Source: Firmicutes bacterium UBA4981
GTDB taxonomy: Bacteria > Bacillota > SHA-98 > UBA4971
Assembly (NCBI GenBank): GCA_002398515.1
Contig: DGZL01000138.1
Coordinates: forward strand, 12,302 to 55,271
DNA: 42,970 bases
Direction of reading: 5' to 3'
Part shown: positions 15,217-33,090 of the stretch, piece by piece
Position numbering within the stretch: the stretch's first letter is position 1
Layout of the letters: every line of letters begins with the position of its first letter
The notes under the pieces: model-generated
The model's input: the letters and a program-made list of their open reading frames with translations, nothing else
What the model was told of the DNA's origin: nothing
The model's database searches: none
Translations under genes and position numbers: made by a program

Positions 15217-15247
15217 AGAATTAAACCTCCATTACATGCGCATAATT
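15217..15247 (+). promoter_or_regulatory. forespore (sigma-G/F-like) promoter candidate upstream of the dodecin-spoVA genes
   Basis: AGAATT (15217-15222), then 18 nt, then CATAATT (15241-15247). This compares with the remembered TGAATA-N18-CATACTA and is only a partial match. Confidence 0.3.
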
Positions 15248-15272: not shown

Positions 15273-15479
15273 GTGTCAGTAGTCAAAGTCGTGGAATTAC
15301 TGGGTGAGTCAACGACAAGCTGGGAACATGCAATACAGGAGGCTGTCAGCGCAGCATCCAAGACCATCCGGAATATCACAGGTGTCGAAGTGTTGAATAT
15401 GACCGCCTCTATAGAAAACGGCGAGATTGCGAAATACAAAGCCAATGTGAACGTAGCTTTCTCCGTGGACGACACCTAG
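15273..15479 (+). CDS. dodecin-family flavin-binding protein
   Basis: 68 aa: VVKVVELLGESTTSWEHAIQEAVSAASKTIRNITGVEVLNMTASIENGEIAKYKANVNVAFSV. This follows the dodecin pattern (+ELVG-S..SWE.A...A...A.KT+R.+...EV......+.NG.I..Y+....+.F). GTG start follows AGAGAAAGGGGG. Confidence 0.65.
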   Translation: MSVVKVVELLGESTTSWEHAIQEAVSAASKTIRNITGVEVLNMTASIENGEIAKYKANVNVAFSVDDT

Positions 15480-15561
15480 TCGTAGCATGTATTGGATGCG
15501 TGTGAGTCAGGGGGTATATGCGAAGGTGCCGTCTGAAAAGGCCAGAAAGCAGATAACAAAG

Positions 15562-16032
15562 ATGCCTGAGACTATCCAGGCAGCCCAGGAGCAAAAGCGC
15601 AGGCAAGAGGCTTATCAGCAACTGGTGGCTGAAAGGACGCCAAAGCCTCCGTACCTCCGACATTTCCTCGTTGCATTTATGACAGGCGGTGCCGTTTGTG
15701 CGTTAGGCCAATTTGTCTTAGGCATCTTCATGGGGCGAGGACTGGATATCAACGCAGCGTCCGCTCCTACCCTCGCAGTCATGATTTTACTGGGTATAGT
15801 CTTAACTGCATTCGGGATCTACGATGAATTTGCTGAGTTTGCCGGGGCAGGGGCTGCAGTGCCTATTACAGGGTTCGCAAACACAGTTGCTGCGTCTGCC
15901 ATGGATTTTAAGCATGAAGGTTGGGTTTTGGGAATGGGGGCCAAGATGTTTATTATTGCAGGTCCTGTCATTGTGTATGGCATTTTGAGCGGAGTGTTTG
16001 CCTCTTTCATAACGTATATTATTCGGTTATAG
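15562..16032 (+). CDS. spoVAC: stage V sporulation protein AC
   Basis: Contains PKPPYLRHFLVAFMTGGAVCALGQ and GIYDEFAEFAGAGAAVPITGFANTVAASAMDFKHEGWVLG, closely parallel to B. subtilis SpoVAC. The start is uncertain: ATG 15562 fits homologue length, and in-frame alternatives are GTG 15526 and ATG 15487. Confidence 0.85.
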   Translation: MPETIQAAQEQKRRQEAYQQLVAERTPKPPYLRHFLVAFMTGGAVCALGQFVLGIFMGRGLDINAASAPTLAVMILLGIVLTAFGIYDEFAEFAGAGAAVPITGFANTVAASAMDFKHEGWVLGMGAKMFIIAGPVIVYGILSGVFASFITYIIRL

Positions 16033-17080: not shown

Positions 17081-17431
17081 GTGGACTACATTATCGCGTT
17101 TCTCATCGGAGGGTTTATCTGCGGTATAGGCCAGTTGATACTGGACTTCACAACTCTCACACCCGGACACATGCTCGTGTTGCTTACAGTGATAGGTGCT
17201 CTTGCAGGAGGTTTCGGACTTTACCAGCCTTTTCTCTCATTTGCAAAAGCAGGCGCACTGGTGCCGGTTACCGGATTCGGGGCGTCCATTGCCAAAGGGT
17301 CTCTGTTGGAGGCAGAGAGAACCGGCATTATCGGCTTGTTTACAGGGGCATTTGAGTTTACAGGGCAAGGGCTGGCAGTAGCCGTTTTCTTCAGCGCCAT
17401 CGCTGCCCTCTTCTTCAGTCCACGGTCCTGA
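17081..17431 (+). CDS. spoVAE: stage V sporulation protein AE (SpoVAEB type)
   Basis: 116 aa. Contains IIAFLIGGFICGIGQLILDFT..TPGH and GALVPVTGFGASIAKG, typical of SpoVAEB. Confidence 0.85.
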   Translation: MDYIIAFLIGGFICGIGQLILDFTTLTPGHMLVLLTVIGALAGGFGLYQPFLSFAKAGALVPVTGFGASIAKGSLLEAERTGIIGLFTGAFEFTGQGLAVAVFFSAIAALFFSPRS

Positions 17432-17495
17432 TTATGGCACCTGTAGTTTGCGCTACATATCCGGGCGTTCGGGTAAAGGAAGGTGTCAATCCTCT

Positions 17496-18515
17496 GTGAA
17501 AGAGACTATAGGGTTCCCTCGGGCACTCCTATATTACTATTATTATCCGGCTTGGAGGTCGTTTTTTGAATCCCTTGGCCAGACTTGTCAAGTCTCAGGC
17601 AAGACCACCAAGGCGGTGATAGACTCAGGGATTAGGGTTACAGTAGACGAGGCGTGTTTGCCTGTCAAAGCTTTTCATGGTCATGTGCTGAGCCTCTCCG
17701 GCGCATGTGACAGGGTATTCGTTCCGAGACTGGTTTCCGTTGAGAAGAAGGCTTACATATGCCCGAAGCTAATGGGCCTTCCTGACATGGTAAGACACAA
17801 CTGTAAAGGCATCCGGCAAATAATCGACCCTTGCATTGACATGAGCCGTAACTCCCGGGCATATATAAAAGAGCTCTATGCCACCGGTAGGCTATTCACA
17901 CGGAATCCACTGAAGATATCTGTTGCAAGGCGAAAGGCAAAACAAGCATATGAAGTGTTTGTCCGGCTTCTCCAGGCAGGGCTGACGCCCATTGATGCCA
18001 TGGCAAAGCAGGACTTCCATCTTCTGCAGTACTTCCGGGATTCCGGCACATCCTGTAATACGCTGTCAAGACATGACGAAGACGTTCGGTCCCCGATCAT
18101 TGGCGTTCTGGGCCATCCCTATATCCTTTATGACTCATTTCTAGGAATGAACGTTTTGGACAGGCTCCACCTGATGGGTGCAAAAGTAGTGACTATGGAC
18201 ATGCTGCAGCCTGCAGTTGTCGAACAGGCGGCAGCAAAGTCCCAAAAGAGGGTGTTCTGGACCATAGGCAGACGGTTGCTTGGGGCCGGCTACTACTTTC
18301 TGATGCCGGGAACTGTGGACGGTTGCCTCCAAATGAGCGCCTTCGCTTGCGGACCTGATTCTTTCATCGGCGAGCTTTTGCAACAAGAATCTGCAAGGAG
18401 CAAGCAGAAGGTGCCGTTTATGACGATCATAGTTGATGAACACACAGGAGAAGCCGGTGTCCTAACCAGGCTTGAGGCTTTTATGGATATTGTGGAGAGG
18501 TCAATGCTAAGGTGA
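17496..18515 (+). CDS. DUF2229-type 'acyl-CoA dehydratase activase-related' subunit A (substrate unknown)
   Basis: ORF 17448..18515. GTG 17496 follows AAGGAAGGTG. Contains IGFPRALLYYYYYPAWRSFFESLG, DEACLPVK, GHPYILYD, FACGPDS and the C-terminal IVDEHTGEAGVLTRLEAFMDIV. Confidence 0.7.
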   Translation: MKETIGFPRALLYYYYYPAWRSFFESLGQTCQVSGKTTKAVIDSGIRVTVDEACLPVKAFHGHVLSLSGACDRVFVPRLVSVEKKAYICPKLMGLPDMVRHNCKGIRQIIDPCIDMSRNSRAYIKELYATGRLFTRNPLKISVARRKAKQAYEVFVRLLQAGLTPIDAMAKQDFHLLQYFRDSGTSCNTLSRHDEDVRSPIIGVLGHPYILYDSFLGMNVLDRLHLMGAKVVTMDMLQPAVVEQAAAKSQKRVFWTIGRRLLGAGYYFLMPGTVDGCLQMSAFACGPDSFIGELLQQESARSKQKVPFMTIIVDEHTGEAGVLTRLEAFMDIVERSMLR

Positions 18516-19600
18516 AACTGACCTTTGCACGTCTTGGTAATTTTCACATCGCGGCGAAAGCTCTTTTTGAAGCGCTGGGAATTGACGTGGTGTTGCCTCC
18601 GCCTCCTACCAAACGCACAATGTCCCTGGGTTCGCTCAACTCTCCTGAATTCGCTTGTCTTCCGCTGAAAATGAATATTGGAAACTACTTGGAAGCCTTG
18701 GAGAAAGGGGCAGATACTATTGTAATGGTAGGTGGTATAGGTCCGTGCCGCCTTGGATTATACGGCGAAGTCCAAAGGCAAATCCTGGAAGGGATCGGAT
18801 GCGATTTCAAGATGATTGTTGTGGAGCCTCCACAAGGGAGACCGGACCGCGTCTTTCGGCAATTGTTCGAGATTACGGGAGCGCAACGTATCTCACAGTA
18901 TGTTGGAGCTCTGCGTCTGGGCTGGAGTAAACTCACTGCCATAGACTCTCTGGAGAAGCTTGCTCTCAGACTCCGCCCGTTTGAGGAGTCAAAAGGTGAT
19001 ATCTCGTTTGCCTATGAAGCCACTTTGAAGCGCATAGATGAGGCGGGTAGCCCGAAAGAGGTAGCGTCTGCCTTGGAGAACGGACAAGCAGCAATGAAGT
19101 CCGCCTGCAAGAAGACAGACTCGGACAAGCCGGGCATCGGTATTGTGGGAGAAGTGTTCATGGTTCTCGAACCTTTTGCCAACTGTGAGATTGAGAAGCG
19201 CTTGGGGGAGATGGGGGTCGTAGTGCATAGGTCAATTTATCTCAGTGATTGGGTGATGGAACATGTAGTAAAGGACGTGTTTCGCATTTTGCGAAAATCC
19301 AAGCTTCCATATGAATTGGCTAGGCCGTATTTATGTCACTTCGTCGGTGGCCACGGCGTGGAGACCATAGCGTCTACCGTAGACTACGCCAGGCAGGGGC
19401 TGGACGGGGTAATTCAGGTAGCTCCGTTTACATGTATGCCTGAGATCATAGCTCAAGATCTACTGCCTACAGTCTCGAGGGATCTTGGTATTCCCGTAAT
19501 GACCCTTGTTCTGGATGAGCATTCGTCCGGCACCGGGGTGTTGACGCGTCTTGAGGCTTTTGTTGACTTGGTTAGAATGTCACGCCGCTCCAGGAGGTGA
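18512..19600 (+). CDS. DUF2229/HGD-D-like subunit B, paralogue of subunit A (substrate unknown)
   Basis: GTG overlaps the upstream TGA (GTGA at 18512-18515). Contains PEFACLPLKMNIG, GGIGPCRLGLYGE, APFTCMPE and the C-terminal VLDEHSSGTGVLTRLEAFVDLV. Confidence 0.7.
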   Translation: MKLTFARLGNFHIAAKALFEALGIDVVLPPPPTKRTMSLGSLNSPEFACLPLKMNIGNYLEALEKGADTIVMVGGIGPCRLGLYGEVQRQILEGIGCDFKMIVVEPPQGRPDRVFRQLFEITGAQRISQYVGALRLGWSKLTAIDSLEKLALRLRPFEESKGDISFAYEATLKRIDEAGSPKEVASALENGQAAMKSACKKTDSDKPGIGIVGEVFMVLEPFANCEIEKRLGEMGVVVHRSIYLSDWVMEHVVKDVFRILRKSKLPYELARPYLCHFVGGHGVETIASTVDYARQGLDGVIQVAPFTCMPEIIAQDLLPTVSRDLGIPVMTLVLDEHSSGTGVLTRLEAFVDLVRMSRRSRR

Positions 19601-19606
19601 TTCCCG

Positions 19607-20566
19607 GTGGCAGGCTCAGGTTATCTGGGAGTGGATGTCGGTTCTGTCAGCACTAACTTAGTGCTGATAGATGAGAGAGGAGTGTTACAGGAGAAACTTT
19701 ACCTGAGGACTCAGGGAGATCCGATAAGCGCTGTGAAAGAAGGGATGAGGCGTCTTGCAGCTGTCGCAGGGGATACTGAAATCCTCGGGGTAGGAACATC
19801 AGGCAGCGGCAGGAAGCTGGCAGGAGTCATCCTTGGCGCTGATTGCATCAAGAATGAGATTACCGCTCATGCAGTAGCTGCCAATTGCCGGGTGCCAGGG
19901 GTGCAAACAGTAATTGAAATCGGCGGCCAAGACTCGAAAATCATCATTCTCAGGCAAGGGATTGTCATTGACTTCGCCATGAATACTGTATGTGCAGCAG
20001 GCACAGGCTCTTTCTTGGAGCAACAAGCAGCAAGGCTGGGTATAGCCATAGATCAATTCGGCAAACTTGCGCTCGGGGCGGTAACCCCTGTAAGAATTGC
20101 AGGTAGATGTGCAGTGTTTGCTGAGTCCGACATGATACACAAGCAGCAAATGGGACACAGGATTGAAGACATAATCTCAGGCCTGTGCGAGGCCCTTGTC
20201 CGAAACTACCTGAATAACGTCGGGAAAGGAAAAATCATTGAACCGCCTGTGGTTTTCCAAGGAGGCGTTGCTGCTAATGCCGGTATGAAAGCTGCTTTTG
20301 AGAAGGAACTAGGCACACAAGTTATCGTACCTGAACATTATGATGTGATGGGAGCCTTAGGCGCTGCGCTAATGGCCATAGAGGAAAAGAACAGAAAAGA
20401 CGGGCAATCTGCGTTTCGTGGATTTGCTGCCCTTAACAGAGACTACGCTACCCGGACTTTTGAATGTAAGGGCTGTCCGAATCTTTGTGAGATCGTAAAT
20501 ATTACTATGGACAATGAGACTATTGCCCGATGGGGTTCCAGATGCGGCAGGTGGGATTCACTGTAA
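19607..20566 (+). CDS. BcrAD/BadFG-family ATPase (CoA-substrate-specific enzyme 'activase' type) with a Cys-rich C-terminal tail
   Basis: Contains YLGVDVGSVSTNLVLID (phosphate-1), VIEIGGQDSKII, NTVCAAGTGSF and GRCAVFAESD (the two cluster-bridging Cys positions of HgdC-like activators), and FQGGVAANAGM. The tail reads FECKGCPNLCEIV...RWGSRCGRWD. Confidence 0.8.
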   Translation: MAGSGYLGVDVGSVSTNLVLIDERGVLQEKLYLRTQGDPISAVKEGMRRLAAVAGDTEILGVGTSGSGRKLAGVILGADCIKNEITAHAVAANCRVPGVQTVIEIGGQDSKIIILRQGIVIDFAMNTVCAAGTGSFLEQQAARLGIAIDQFGKLALGAVTPVRIAGRCAVFAESDMIHKQQMGHRIEDIISGLCEALVRNYLNNVGKGKIIEPPVVFQGGVAANAGMKAAFEKELGTQVIVPEHYDVMGALGAALMAIEEKNRKDGQSAFRGFAALNRDYATRTFECKGCPNLCEIVNITMDNETIARWGSRCGRWDSL

Positions 20567-20603: not shown

Positions 20604-20632
20604 TTGACCCCAGGTAGCTTGCATGCTATTAT
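20604..20632 (+). promoter_or_regulatory. sigma-A-type promoter in the activase-lysA spacer
   Basis: TTGACC (20604-20609), exactly 17 nt, then TATTAT (20627-20632). Confidence 0.5.
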
Positions 20633-30858: not shown

Positions 30859-33090
30859 TTGCAGGTTGTAATTGGTGAACACAGCGGGTTTTGCTTTGGG
30901 GTTAAGCGAGCGGTTGAAATTGCTGAAGAGACAGGCAGTCAAGGTGTCGCCTTCACCCTCGGCCCCTTGGTTCATAATCCTCAGGTTGTCGCCAAGCTGG
31001 AAGAAACAGGGGTTATCCCGATATCGGATTTGAATGAAATCTCAGATGGTTATATGATAGTGCCGTCGCATGGACTACCACCTGACGTCATTGATGAAGC
31101 GCATACACGAGGGCTAAGAGTTGTTCATGCCACTTGTCCGTATGTCAGGCGCGCACAAGAGCGGGCCGCTGAGTTGAACCGTAAGGGTTATCAGGTGTTT
31201 ATAGTTGGTGACGAAGGACACAAAGAAGTAGTTGGTCTGTTAGGTTGGGCCGGAGATAATGCAAGAGTAGTTATGACCGGTGAAGATGTGGCATCCGGTT
31301 TCGTCGAGCCCAAGGTCGGTGTTGTTTGTCAGACCACCCAGACAGTCGAGGCTTTTCGCCGGGTTCTCGCTGCCCTTGCCTTAAGGGCGAAAGAGCTTAT
31401 GGCCTACAATACGATATGTAATGCTACTTGGAAAAGGCAGGATGCTGCGCGCAAGTTGGCACGATCAGTTGATGCCGTGGTCGTGGTCGGCGGGCGGGCC
31501 AGCGCGAATACGCGAAGGCTTGTAGAAATCTGTGAAGCGGAAGGCGCTAAGGTCTACTGGGTGGAAGGGCCGGGAGACCTAGATACCCTGGACTTTTCAG
31601 GACTCGAAAGGGTGGGGTTAACGGCGGGGGCATCAACGCCGAATTGGGTTATCGAGGAGGTCGTTGAGAGGATGAGCGTACCGGATGAAGGGAAGATAAA
31701 TGAGTTGGGGGTAGAAGAGATTACTGAGGACAGAAGTATTGACGAAATTGAAACCGTTGAGGTAAGTGAAGACGCAATGGAGGAAATTCCCGAGGATTCA
31801 GAAGAATGCGCTGATACTGATAATGAAGGGGAAGACAAGGAAGTTCCAGAAGAGGACTCTGAGACTTCGCAGGTGGACGAAGAGGAGCCTAAAACTTCAC
31901 AGGTGGAAGAAGAGCCGGATGTTACAGGACCTGAAGGGGAGGAGCCAGAGACTGTGGACATGTCGCTCCAGCCGGCACTTGTGGAGGGCGATATAGTGGA
32001 AGGCACTGTTGCCGCAGTCGAACCCGAGCGGGTCCTTGTCGATATTGGACTTAAATCCGAGGGTGTAGTGCCAAGGAATGAGATCTCCAGAAGGCAGGTC
32101 CAGTCTTGCGAAGGTATAGTCAATGTAGGCGACAGGATAGAGGTTTTAGTCGAGAAACTGGAAGATAGTGGAGGCGAGCCTCTTCTGTCCAAGCGGAAGG
32201 CTGATATTGCCAGGGCATGGGATGCAATTTTCGACGCTCTTGATAACGAAGCCATAGTTGAAGGAGAAGTCACGGATGTAGTCAAAGGCGGTATCGTCGT
32301 GGACGTCGGCCTGAGGGGTTTTGTTCCTGCTTCGCATGCAAGCATCCGTCCTATTCAGGATCTCGGCCAGCTTCGAGGGGAGACCCTTCGAATGAAGGTT
32401 CTGGAAGCTGACAGGGACAAGAAGAATGTGGTTCTTTCCGCACGGCAGGCGCAAGAAGAGGAACTGGCTGAAGCCAGGAAACAGGTGCTCGAATCTTTAA
32501 ACGAAGGTATAATCGTGGAAGGCGTTGTTAGGCGTGTCGTCAATTTCGGCGCCTTTGTCGACATAGGCGACGGAGTGGAAGGCCTTCTGCACGTTTCAGA
32601 CATGGCCTGGACCAGAACGGAAGATCCCCGGGACGTAGTCTCGGAGGGAGAACGAATAAGAGTGAAGGTGCTGGCTGTAGACAGGGAGCGCGAGCGGATT
32701 TCATTGGGTCTAAAACAAACCCTTCCGGATCCATGGGATGACGTGACCACAAGGTACCCAGTAGGTAGTATTGTCAAAGGAACAGTCACCAAGACAGTTG
32801 ACTTTGGCGCTTTTGTCCAGTTGGAACCTGGGATTGAAGGCCTTGTGCACATCTCGCAATTAGCTGATAGACGAGTTGAGAAGCCTGATGAAGTGGTCAG
32901 CCCCGGGGATGAGATAGCTGTAAAGGTTATCAGCGTAAGGCCGAGAGACCATCGAATCGGGTTGAGCCTGAAAGAAGCCCAGTCTGAAGAGGAAAAGCGG
33001 GTCTATAAGAAGTATGCTGATAAGTCCGATAGCCAAGCACTCACAATTGGTGATGTCTTTGGCGATATTCTTAAGAACTCACAGGAATAA
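30859..33090 (+). CDS. ispH: bifunctional 4-hydroxy-3-methylbut-2-enyl diphosphate reductase (IspH/LytB) / ribosomal protein S1-like fusion
   Basis: The N-terminal ~275 aa has GFCFGVKRAVEIAEE, HATCPYVRRAQ and ICNATWKRQ, the three Cys-bearing IspH motifs. A ~100-aa acidic linker follows. Four S1 domains follow that (GDIVEGTV..., EGEVTDVVKGGIVVDVG, EGVVRRVVNFGAFVDIG, KGTVTKTVDFGAFVQLE). Confidence 0.9.
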   Translation: MQVVIGEHSGFCFGVKRAVEIAEETGSQGVAFTLGPLVHNPQVVAKLEETGVIPISDLNEISDGYMIVPSHGLPPDVIDEAHTRGLRVVHATCPYVRRAQERAAELNRKGYQVFIVGDEGHKEVVGLLGWAGDNARVVMTGEDVASGFVEPKVGVVCQTTQTVEAFRRVLAALALRAKELMAYNTICNATWKRQDAARKLARSVDAVVVVGGRASANTRRLVEICEAEGAKVYWVEGPGDLDTLDFSGLERVGLTAGASTPNWVIEEVVERMSVPDEGKINELGVEEITEDRSIDEIETVEVSEDAMEEIPEDSEECADTDNEGEDKEVPEEDSETSQVDEEEPKTSQVEEEPDVTGPEGEEPETVDMSLQPALVEGDIVEGTVAAVEPERVLVDIGLKSEGVVPRNEISRRQVQSCEGIVNVGDRIEVLVEKLEDSGGEPLLSKRKADIARAWDAIFDALDNEAIVEGEVTDVVKGGIVVDVGLRGFVPASHASIRPIQDLGQLRGETLRMKVLEADRDKKNVVLSARQAQEEELAEARKQVLESLNEGIIVEGVVRRVVNFGAFVDIGDGVEGLLHVSDMAWTRTEDPRDVVSEGERIRVKVLAVDRERERISLGLKQTLPDPWDDVTTRYPVGSIVKGTVTKTVDFGAFVQLEPGIEGLVHISQLADRRVEKPDEVVSPGDEIAVKVISVRPRDHRIGLSLKEAQSEEEKRVYKKYADKSDSQALTIGDVFGDILKNSQE
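31864..31914 (+). repeat. 30-nt-period direct repeat inside the acidic IspH-S1 linker
   Basis: ACTTCGCAGGTGGACGAAGAG (31864-31884) matches ACTTCACAGGTGGAAGAAGAG (31894-31914) at 19/21. The copies encode TSQVDEE and TSQVEEE. Confidence 0.7.

Follow-up and report, generated by a model that had tools for sequence, protein, structure and literature searches.

A three-gene activase and reductase module on the PlsA/PlsR-Ger branch, located behind the spoVA genes of Firmicutes bacterium UBA4981, with a suggested role in the forespore

A stretch of 42,970 nucleotides (nt) from contig DGZL01000138.1 of Firmicutes bacterium UBA4981 (GenBank assembly GCA_002398515.1; hereafter the window) carries three tightly packed open reading frames between spoVAE and lysA, termed ORF-A, ORF-B and ORF-C (together the triad; also A, B and C). 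ORF-C is an HgdC-type activase ATPase, and the other two are catalytic subunits, paralogous to each other, with a fold known from benzoyl-CoA reductases and 2-hydroxyacyl-CoA dehydratases (BCR/HAD); sequence comparison places the triad as a split sister family on the PlsA/PlsR-Ger branch, and not as an orthologue. Taken together, the domain assignments, the folds, the conserved ligands, the homology with PlsA-type proteins, the gene order and the enrichment of a promoter motif make it, in our view, rather probable that the triad is an oxygen-sensitive reductase of the BCR/HAD radical-enzyme superfamily, complete in itself, driven by ATP and working at low potential, which is sister to PlsA/PlsR-Ger and belongs to the forespore programme of endospore-forming anaerobes. 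Judged from sequence, the anatomy of the locus and its family placement are solid, and the case made for its regulation is suggestive. The kind of enzyme is known; what seems to be undescribed, within a limited check of the literature, is this sister family of three genes with a single ATPase, and its apparent recruitment to the forespore.

The three genes of the triad are, in window positions:
17496..18515, plus strand: ORF-A, 339 amino acids (aa), DUF2229, Red1-equivalent catalytic subunit with Cys54, Cys89 and Cys285
18512..19600, plus strand: ORF-B, 362 aa, Red2-equivalent (PlsR type) catalytic subunit with Cys49, Cys79 and Cys308
19607..20566, plus strand: ORF-C, 319 aa, ASKHA-fold activase ATPase with Cys129, Cys168 and C287-x2-C290-x3-C294-x18-C313

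ORF-A matches the Pfam family DUF2229 (PF09989) over the full model length (2e-48, 165 bits). ORF-B matches DUF2229 at 1.4e-11 and has a C-terminal HGD-D (PF06050) match below threshold (17.7 versus the gathering score of 28.4 bits); no HGD-D match was obtained for ORF-A. ORF-C is matched by PF01869 (BcrAD_BadFG; 3.4e-46, 158 bits, cut-off 31.5) and by TIGR00241 (186 bits, cut-off 125). The original prediction, made from the nucleotide sequence and its translations, had described an activase ATPase with two DUF2229-type iron-sulfur partners and had proposed these three Pfam models as a check; the profile matches agree with it, as do the folds and invariant cysteines given below. NCBIfam has no model for ORF-A or ORF-B, and it matched the Listeria PlsA protein in the activase domain only. 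The names carried by triad proteins at NCBI are generic ('acyl-CoA dehydratase activase-related', 'CoA protein activase' and '2-hydroxyacyl-CoA dehydratase').

Searches of ORF-A and ORF-B against PDB chains with phmmer returned nothing at E <= 1, dehydratase chains included, and a profile built from the ORF-A alignment gave a marginal match to the C-terminus of DCCP (9e-5); as these searches were nearly empty, a fold search was needed. AlphaFold2 models were built on alignments of 55 and 61 sequences for ORF-A and ORF-B, with mean confidence (pLDDT) values of 88.0 and 88.7, respectively. In Foldseek searches with both models, all 17 matches at E <= 1e-3 were chains of DCCP, HadBC, BzdNO or MbdON; ORF-B found DCCP and HadBC at 2e-10 to 2e-9. 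For ORF-C, the best match among PDB sequences was MbdQ (4.6e-38), and HadI (3e-35), HgdC and DCCP-R (3.6e-25) were also found. Its Cys129 and Cys168 align with the Cys127 and Cys166 columns of HgdC in 1HUX, 4EHT, 9GAI_D and 7YYL_E, residues which are the ligands of the [4Fe-4S] cluster that bridges the two HgdC monomers.

Conservation of cysteines across the family is complete at these positions: Cys54, Cys89 and Cys285 of ORF-A are invariant in 78 of 78 sequences, Cys49, Cys79 and Cys308 of ORF-B in 71 of 71, and all seven cysteines of ORF-C (129, 168, 194, 287, 290, 294 and 313) in 64 of 64. ORF-A and ORF-B are paralogues of 21-28% identity. Natural A-B fusion proteins of 690-770 aa were found among the family representatives (P0242, P0248, P0256, P0259, P0303, P0306, P0322 and P0381), which fits an obligate A/B heterodimer; from the sequences, ORF-A and ORF-B almost certainly form one catalytic heterodimer.

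PlsA/PlsR of Clostridium perfringens is an anaerobic plasmalogen synthase (PMC9702350, PMC8788747), for which a scheme of two one-electron reductions with subsequent protonation and dehydration has been put forward (PMC8788747). Ger, described from Thermotoga maritima (Tmari_0479) and Desulfatibacillum alkenivorans, converts the sn-1 ester to an alkyl ether under anaerobic conditions only, and has the architecture BBDHDDH with two PF01869 domains, PF09989 and PF06050 (PMC13159169). The triad's closest characterised homologues act on sn-1 acyl esters (PMC13159169, PMC8788747). The original prediction had regarded DUF2229-type partners, often fused to the ATPase in proteins of about 1400 aa, as having no assigned substrate; this view is outdated, since PlsA/PlsR and Ger are these fusions (PMC13159169, PMC8788747, PMC9702350).

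PlsA-type proteins for comparison were obtained by tblastn of chromosome records within a plasmid collection; the set comprised Listeria monocytogenes, Collinsella, Fusobacterium, Acetoanaerobium and Brevibacillus, with no Ger or C. perfringens sequence in it, so that Ger is likened to the triad from its description, not from sequence. L. monocytogenes has a single DUF2229 protein (1475 aa; DUF2229 286 bits), encoded at one place in the 2.9-Mb record. ORF-C aligns with the Act2 domain and linker of this protein (32% identity, 8.7e-46) and scores higher with Act2 (155 bits) than with Act1 (95 bits); ORF-A aligns with residues 669-986 (Red1; 26% identity, E = 2.5e-19) and ORF-B with Red2 (23% identity, 9e-7). 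By BLAST the triad is collinear with the PlsA-type proteins of all five genera, C corresponding to Act2, A to Red1 and B to Red2. A motif C-x2-C-x3-C-x~19-C following Act2 is common to all five PlsA-type proteins and ORF-C and is missing from HgdC, HadI and DCCP-R, and all six cysteine columns of Red1 and Red2 are common to triad A/B and the PlsA-type proteins. In a small, distance-based neighbour-joining tree, the ORF-A sequences form a clade that is sister to the Red1 domains taken together, and the ORF-B sequences a clade that is sister to the Red2 domains taken together.

PlsA/PlsR, also of the BCR/HAD family, therefore has the same four modules as the triad, i.e. an activase ATPase, the four-cysteine motif, Red1 with DUF2229, and Red2, and occurs as a single gene in Enterococcus and Listeria. 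The two systems differ in that PlsA has a fused Act1-Act2 pair in one polypeptide, whereas the triad has one stand-alone ATPase gene of 319 aa; in that the order is Act-Act-Red1-Red2 in PlsA and A-B-C in the triad; and in that the triad, unlike PlsA/PlsR, sits behind spoVA or behind a forespore-type promoter motif. Ger is likewise one large fused protein with two ATPase domains, and its chemistry is of the kind that we propose for the triad by analogy.

Of the other BCR/HAD systems, DCCP of Carboxydothermus hydrogenoformans (6ENO, 7YYL) was the top fold match of both A and B (E = 2e-8 to 2e-10, template modelling score about 0.5-0.59), and DCCP/DCCP-R is, like the triad, an ATP-driven reductase without a known physiological substrate. 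DCCP is a homodimer with six cysteines per monomer that hold an [8Fe-9S] cluster; the triad has instead two different subunits with three invariant cysteines each, not six per chain, and may hold a cluster at the A/B interface with 3+3 cysteines. DCCP also has no DUF2229 domain, and DCCP-R is without the four-cysteine tail of ORF-C. DCCP/DCCP-R was rejected as an identification, given two paralogues with three cysteines each and no homodimeric six-cysteine protein. HadBC/HadI (3O3M, 4EHT) comprises an activator and a heterodimeric catalytic pair with a fold like that of A/B, three cysteines holding each [4Fe-4S] cluster of HadBC; it acts on a CoA thioester and needs a CoA-transferase, and A/B fail Pfam membership in HGD-D. 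The class I benzoyl-CoA reductases BzdNOPQ and MbdONQP (8S02, 9GAI) resemble A/B in the folds of BzdNO and MbdON, but are made of four different subunits with two distinct ATPase chains, whereas the triad has a single ATPase gene. ORF-C scored far under the cut-offs of the equivalog models (TIGR02259, 98 versus 578 bits; TIGR03192, 69 versus 380 bits; TIGR02261, 66 versus 313 bits), and with its single ATPase the triad was rejected as a class I benzoyl-CoA reductase.

A scan with one genome per species found at least 577 relatives, of which the best 80 loci, by similarity to one query, were analysed. In nearly all of the 80 loci A, B and C stand side by side, and this recurrence as a unit shows that the triad is no chance pattern of ORFs. 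The typical order is sigF, dodecin, spoVAC, spoVAD, spoVAEB, (spoVAEA), spoVAF, A, B, C, (a TrpB-like gene), lysA, (an A-adding tRNA nucleotidyltransferase gene), an M50 peptidase gene and trpS. The gene directly 5' of A on the same strand is spoVAF in 27 loci and a spoVAE-type gene in four; in these 31 loci the median gap to A is 76 nt, and 10 gaps are of 24 nt or less, three of them overlaps (overlap with, or up to 24 nt from, spoVAF in nine loci; up to 22 nt from a spoVAE-type gene in one). In the window and in the relative L084, whose ORF-A is 79% identical and which has the same spoVA/triad layout, spoVAEA and spoVAF have been lost between spoVAE and the triad; SpoVAEA is present in 19 relatives, and at least 27 have spoVAF, a gene of the GerA family, directly 5' of A. 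The original prediction had placed the triad in the slot that spoVAF occupies in B. subtilis and had proposed a test for an anticorrelation of the two; as spoVAF lies directly upstream of A in most of the syntenic relatives, the triad does not replace it and the anticorrelation fails. The dodecin gene between sigF and spoVAC is kept in many related loci; this position, together with the promoter motif found ahead of it in 15 of 27 loci (see below), suggests a dodecin that binds or stores flavin in the forespore and is transcribed along with the genes of the SpoVA channel.

When the loci were tallied for sporulation signals, 77 of the 80 were evaluable and 61 of these showed a signal: 42 had sporulation (spo) genes alongside the triad and 19 had only a promoter motif, GHATR-N17/18-CATXHTA, that was searched for as a forespore-type promoter. 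Exact plus-strand matches to this pattern number 33 in 1.4 Mb; eight of these are just 5' of A and six are 5' of dacF, a classical forespore gene. The exact sites 5' of A read G(T/C)ATA-N17/18-CATAATA and are mostly 17-45 nt before the start codon (one at 134 nt); three are inside cls-A spacers without spo genes nearby. Allowing up to one mismatch, a site is present within about 130 nt 5' of A in 36 of the 77 loci, with about 4.3 expected from real intergenic background of the same loci and six found on the opposite strand of the same spacers (binomial P = 8e-25, a value that overstates independence because the loci are phylogenetically related and were chosen by one query). The enrichment is 8-fold over background and 6-fold over the opposite strand. 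At the same stringency the motif was found 5' of the dodecin gene in 15 of 27 loci, and 5' of B, C, lysA, trpS and sigF in 0-11% of loci, with 0-5% for B, C and lysA. When only the -10-like heptamer was imposed, a -35 element GnATA emerged 18 nt upstream. Among the sites (50 loci aligned on the -10), 60% have a G three bases 5' of the -10 heptamer, versus 15% of the background; this G could be peculiar to the forespore-type promoters of this lineage. The motif was seen in four unrelated genomic contexts. These data suggest that in many other genomes the triad has its own promoter of the sigma-F/G type.

In the window, the features around the triad on which a transcription unit can be proposed are:
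15218..15247, plus strand: candidate forespore-type promoter, GAATT-N18-CATAATT, 5' of the dodecin gene; function assigned tentatively, from the motif
15273..15479, plus strand: dodecin gene (PF07311, 3.2e-26), first gene of the putative unit
15487..16032, plus strand: spoVAC, by tblastn synteny; the L084 orthologue matches PF03862
16054..17064, plus strand: spoVAD, by synteny; the L084 orthologue matches PF07451
17081..17431, plus strand: spoVAE (SpoVAEB type), stop codon at 17429-17431; the L084 orthologue matches PF03862
17432..17495, plus strand: spoVAE/ORF-A spacer of 64 nt, with a ribosome-binding site AAAGGAAGGTG at 17475-17485
20604..20632, plus strand: sigma-A-like promoter TTGACC-17-TATTAT with extended TG, between ORF-C and lysA (consensus scan, 10 of 12 positions)

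ORF-A is on the same strand as the spoVA genes and is separated from them by the 64-nt spacer, with no terminator or promoter break. The longest form of ORF-A (355 aa) would start at TTG 17448, 16 nt past the spoVAE stop at 17431, whereas the form used by database homologues and gene callers starts at GTG 17496, 64 nt past it; the original prediction had left the start within this range of 16-64 nt. The corresponding spacer of L084 has a 47-nt indel, which is not a multiple of three, and the region upstream of 17496 was therefore taken as non-coding, with the start at 17496; TTG 17448 was rejected. The stretch AAGGA(A/T)GGTG...GTGAAAGAG directly 5' of the ORF-A start is kept between the window and L084, and this conserved ribosome-binding site supports the same start. 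The TGA of ORF-A lies inside GTGA at 18512-18515, of which the GTG is the start of ORF-B, and the ORF-B stop at 19600 is 6 nt from the ORF-C start at 19607. No terminator-like hairpin with U-tract was detected between spoVAE and ORF-A or after ORF-C, and neither spacer has a better folding energy than shuffled sequence (z = -0.75 for spoVAE/ORF-A, and -0.93). The three packed ORFs, their coordinates, the peptide motifs quoted for them and the absence of a hairpin before ORF-A had all been described in the original prediction, and were all found again in the sequence, the translations and the terminator scan. An Rfam scan of the whole window found no riboswitch or other RNA.

At the site 15218-15247 both boxes are kept in L084 and the spacer between the boxes varies. 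Since the spoVAE/ORF-A spacer of the window is itself without the motif (see below), the triad is probably read through from the dodecin-spoVAC promoter, and probably forms the 3' end of a dodecin-spoVAC-spoVAD-spoVAE transcription unit. The sigma-A-like promoter at 20604-20632 indicates that lysA is probably transcribed independently, besides any read-through. Co-transcription with the spoVA genes in the forespore, as had been anticipated, thus receives comparative support from the lack of a terminator, the 31 loci with a spoVA gene upstream, and the motif in 36 of 77 loci.

The family, the synteny and the promoters suggest the following scheme for an A-B-C2 complex, its electron flow and its expression in the forespore. 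ORF-C would form a homodimer in which Cys129 and Cys168 of both monomers bind one bridging [4Fe-4S] cluster; reduced ferredoxin or flavodoxin would give this dimer an electron, which it would inject into A/B upon ATP hydrolysis. ORF-A and ORF-B would form a pseudo-symmetric heterodimer, whose 3+3 cysteines might hold either one double-cubane cluster or a pair of [4Fe-4S] clusters with an open iron site, and at which the substrate would be reduced, at a carbonyl or ester group, via a ketyl-type radical. Expression would be in the forespore, in the window by read-through from the promoter-like site at 15218-15247.

Several observations weigh against a reductase of the forespore and against a lipid substrate. 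Triads of Actinomycetota metagenome-assembled genomes (MAGs; L027, L057, L069, L071 and L075) have neither spo genes nor the promoter motif, and altogether 16 of the 77 evaluable loci (these MAGs and some Tissierellia) show neither signal; hence the module works outside sporulation, too. The whole dacF...trpS block is syntenic, and adjacency alone could be inherited order. The search pattern was the B. subtilis forespore consensus, applied here to distant Firmicutes, and the 80 loci are interrelated, biased to this lineage and chosen by one query. In the window, no motif was found in the spoVAE/ORF-A spacer with up to two mismatches allowed, and the candidate promoter at 15218-15247 has two mismatches to GHATR-N17/18-CATXHTA. 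The motif is not recurrent 5' of the cardiolipin synthase (cls) genes that adjoin some triads (weak in two of five). Finally, the triad and PlsA-type proteins share only 22-26% identity, so that the substrate may have nothing to do with lipids.

An alternative is a housekeeping or vegetative enzyme whose place behind spoVA is inherited order, with motifs that are AT-rich look-alikes or sigma-A -10 boxes: the whole pdp-to-scpB region is syntenic and contains many non-sporulation genes, the triad is found in Actinomycetota MAGs and in the 16 loci without any sporulation signal, and CATAAT is similar to the sigma-A -10 box. We regard this alternative as unlikely. It does not explain the excess of the motif over both intergenic background and opposite strand, the -35 GnATA at a fixed 18-nt spacing that had not been imposed, or the restriction of comparable enrichment, besides A, to the dodecin gene, with recurrent exact matches at dacF; nor does it fit the occurrence of the motif in four unrelated contexts, or the nine loci in which A overlaps or closely follows spoVAF and the one in which it closely follows a spoVAE-type gene.

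Less likely still is a PlsA/PlsR or Ger that is split but functionally the same, serves to produce ether lipids for the bulk membrane and is not spore-specific. The domains do correspond one to one, six catalytic cysteines and the four-cysteine linker motif are in common, and natural splits of PlsA are known, e.g. the Fusobacterium pair of 975 + 404 aa. The triad clade is, however, separate from the PlsA-type proteins of five distant genera at the low identity given above, and has one ATPase gene and no fused Act1-Act2 pair; vegetative cells would get no lipids from genes that sit in the spoVA operon under a forespore-type promoter. Moreover, no TetR-type regulator gene was found near the triad, in contrast to the PlsA-type gene of Collinsella, which is preceded by a TetR gene, and to plsA of Enterococcus faecalis with a TetR-type regulator nearby (PMC9702350).

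The original prediction had tentatively proposed redox chemistry on the dihydrodipicolinate branch, i.e. on dipicolinic acid (DPA) or meso-diaminopimelate (meso-DAP), from the position of the triad between the SpoVA Ca-DPA channel genes and lysA. The triad adjoins lysA in the window and in 17-18 relatives, and in Monoglobus pectinilyticus (L083:9235-12619) it is followed by a TSCPD-domain gene, dapF, the LL-diaminopimelate aminotransferase gene (dapL) and the ylmC/ymxH sporulation gene; with dapF and dapL within 3 kb 3' of the triad, this is the sole locus that favours a DAP link. The spoVA-lysA neighbourhood is ancestral, however, and exists in B. subtilis without the triad. In many relatives C is split from lysA by a TrpB-like enzyme, the A-adding tRNA nucleotidyltransferase or unrelated genes; the TrpB-like gene, which codes for a pyridoxal-phosphate enzyme (NF009057, 759 bits), has this position at L004:13216-14574 and in 18 other loci, and is absent from the window. 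Further, lysA has a sigma-A-like promoter of its own, the motif found here is of the forespore type while DPA is synthesised in the mother cell, no characterised DUF2229 enzyme uses amino-acid or pyridine substrates, and about 35 triad loci have no DAP or DPA genes nearby. The proposal, which comes down to the ancestral adjacency of lysA and the one Monoglobus locus, is highly improbable, and the closest homologues point to lipid esters instead.

A 2-hydroxyacyl-CoA dehydratase of amino-acid fermentation (HgdCAB, HadIBC or FldIBC type) is hardly conceivable: some members carry that NCBI name and the folds of A/B are similar to HadBC, but HGD-D is unmatched in A and below threshold in B, the phmmer search against PDB dehydratase chains was empty at E <= 1, no CoA-transferase is among the annotated recurrent neighbour clusters of the 80 loci (singleton neighbours being only partly annotated), the window flanks are spoVAE and lysA, and the four-cysteine motif and DUF2229 put the triad on the PlsA branch.

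For the ATP-driven reductase in the forespore, the substrate is the weakest point. We suggest tentatively, by analogy, that it could be the acyl ester of a membrane glycerolipid, which would be converted to an ether-type lipid in the forespore membrane; this guess is made because of the closest characterised homologues and because of a cls neighbour in five loci. The cls gene (TIGR04265, 405 bits) lies about 60 nt 5' of A on the same strand in L020, L025, L050, L058 and L060 (at about 8.4-9.9 kb; Alkaliphilus-type); with a weak motif in only two of the five, a sporulation-specific function of the neighbouring cls was not supported. More doubtful again is the fuller proposal that a forespore-expressed iron-sulfur reductase remodels a spore component, for which the inner-membrane ester lipids, converted to vinyl- or alkyl-ether lipids, would be the candidate.

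Other neighbours of the triad differ between lineages. In Tissierellia (L033, L046, L053, L064, L066, L067 and L074) the gene directly 5' of A encodes a conserved 488-aa protein for which neither Pfam nor NCBIfam gave a match, and most of these loci, as well as L056, have genes for two small Gate-domain (PF07670) membrane proteins 3' of ORF-C. A signal peptidase gene is a neighbour in the Acetivibrio loci. In the Actinomycetota MAGs the neighbours are an ApbE-like gene and an NfnAB-like pair (ferredoxin-NADP reductase-like and glutamate-synthase small-chain-like), and the latter could supply reduced ferredoxin. Among the loci without spo genes, the neighbours of the triad are heterogeneous and no pathway-defining partner genes were found.

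The genes of the window, annotated by Pfam and tblastn, begin with gdh, a butyrate/acetate-kinase-like gene, a three-subunit 2-oxoacid:ferredoxin oxidoreductase, DUF3866, NUDIX, spoIIM, xerD and pdp; continue with dacF, spoIIAA, spoIIAB, sigF, dodecin, spoVAC, spoVAD, spoVAE, A, B, C and lysA; and end with an M50 peptidase gene, trpS, scpA, scpB, ytfJ, trkA, rluB, cmk, plsC, ispH-rpsA, spoIIP, der, plsY, gpsA and surE. This is the ancient Firmicute gene order, seen in B. subtilis too, and the triad is an insertion into it; its embedding in a dacF-spoIIA-sigF-spoVA...lysA block is as originally described. The gene ispH-rpsA (30859-33090) is one ORF of 743 aa, in which IspH (LytB) is fused to four S1 RNA-binding domains.

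The current generic names miss the branch of the family to which the triad belongs, i.e. the PlsA branch, and the annotation is hereby corrected. Most of what defines the sporulation gene set comes from Bacillus subtilis and a small number of clostridia. If the forespore wiring is true, the triad would represent a new enzymatic activity in the spore development of anaerobes, spread over several deep Firmicute lineages (Desulfotomaculia, Thermincolia, Syntrophomonadia, Halanaerobiia, Tissierellia, Acetivibrio and the Alkaliphilus group), and a conserved sporulation function of anaerobic endospore formers that, to our knowledge, has not been recognised; Bacillus models cannot reveal such a function, because Bacillus is without this oxygen-sensitive enzyme. 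If the proposed lipid chemistry is also true, ether lipids could add to the low permeability or the stability of the dormant spore membrane, which bears on the question of why the spore inner membrane is so impermeable and immobile.

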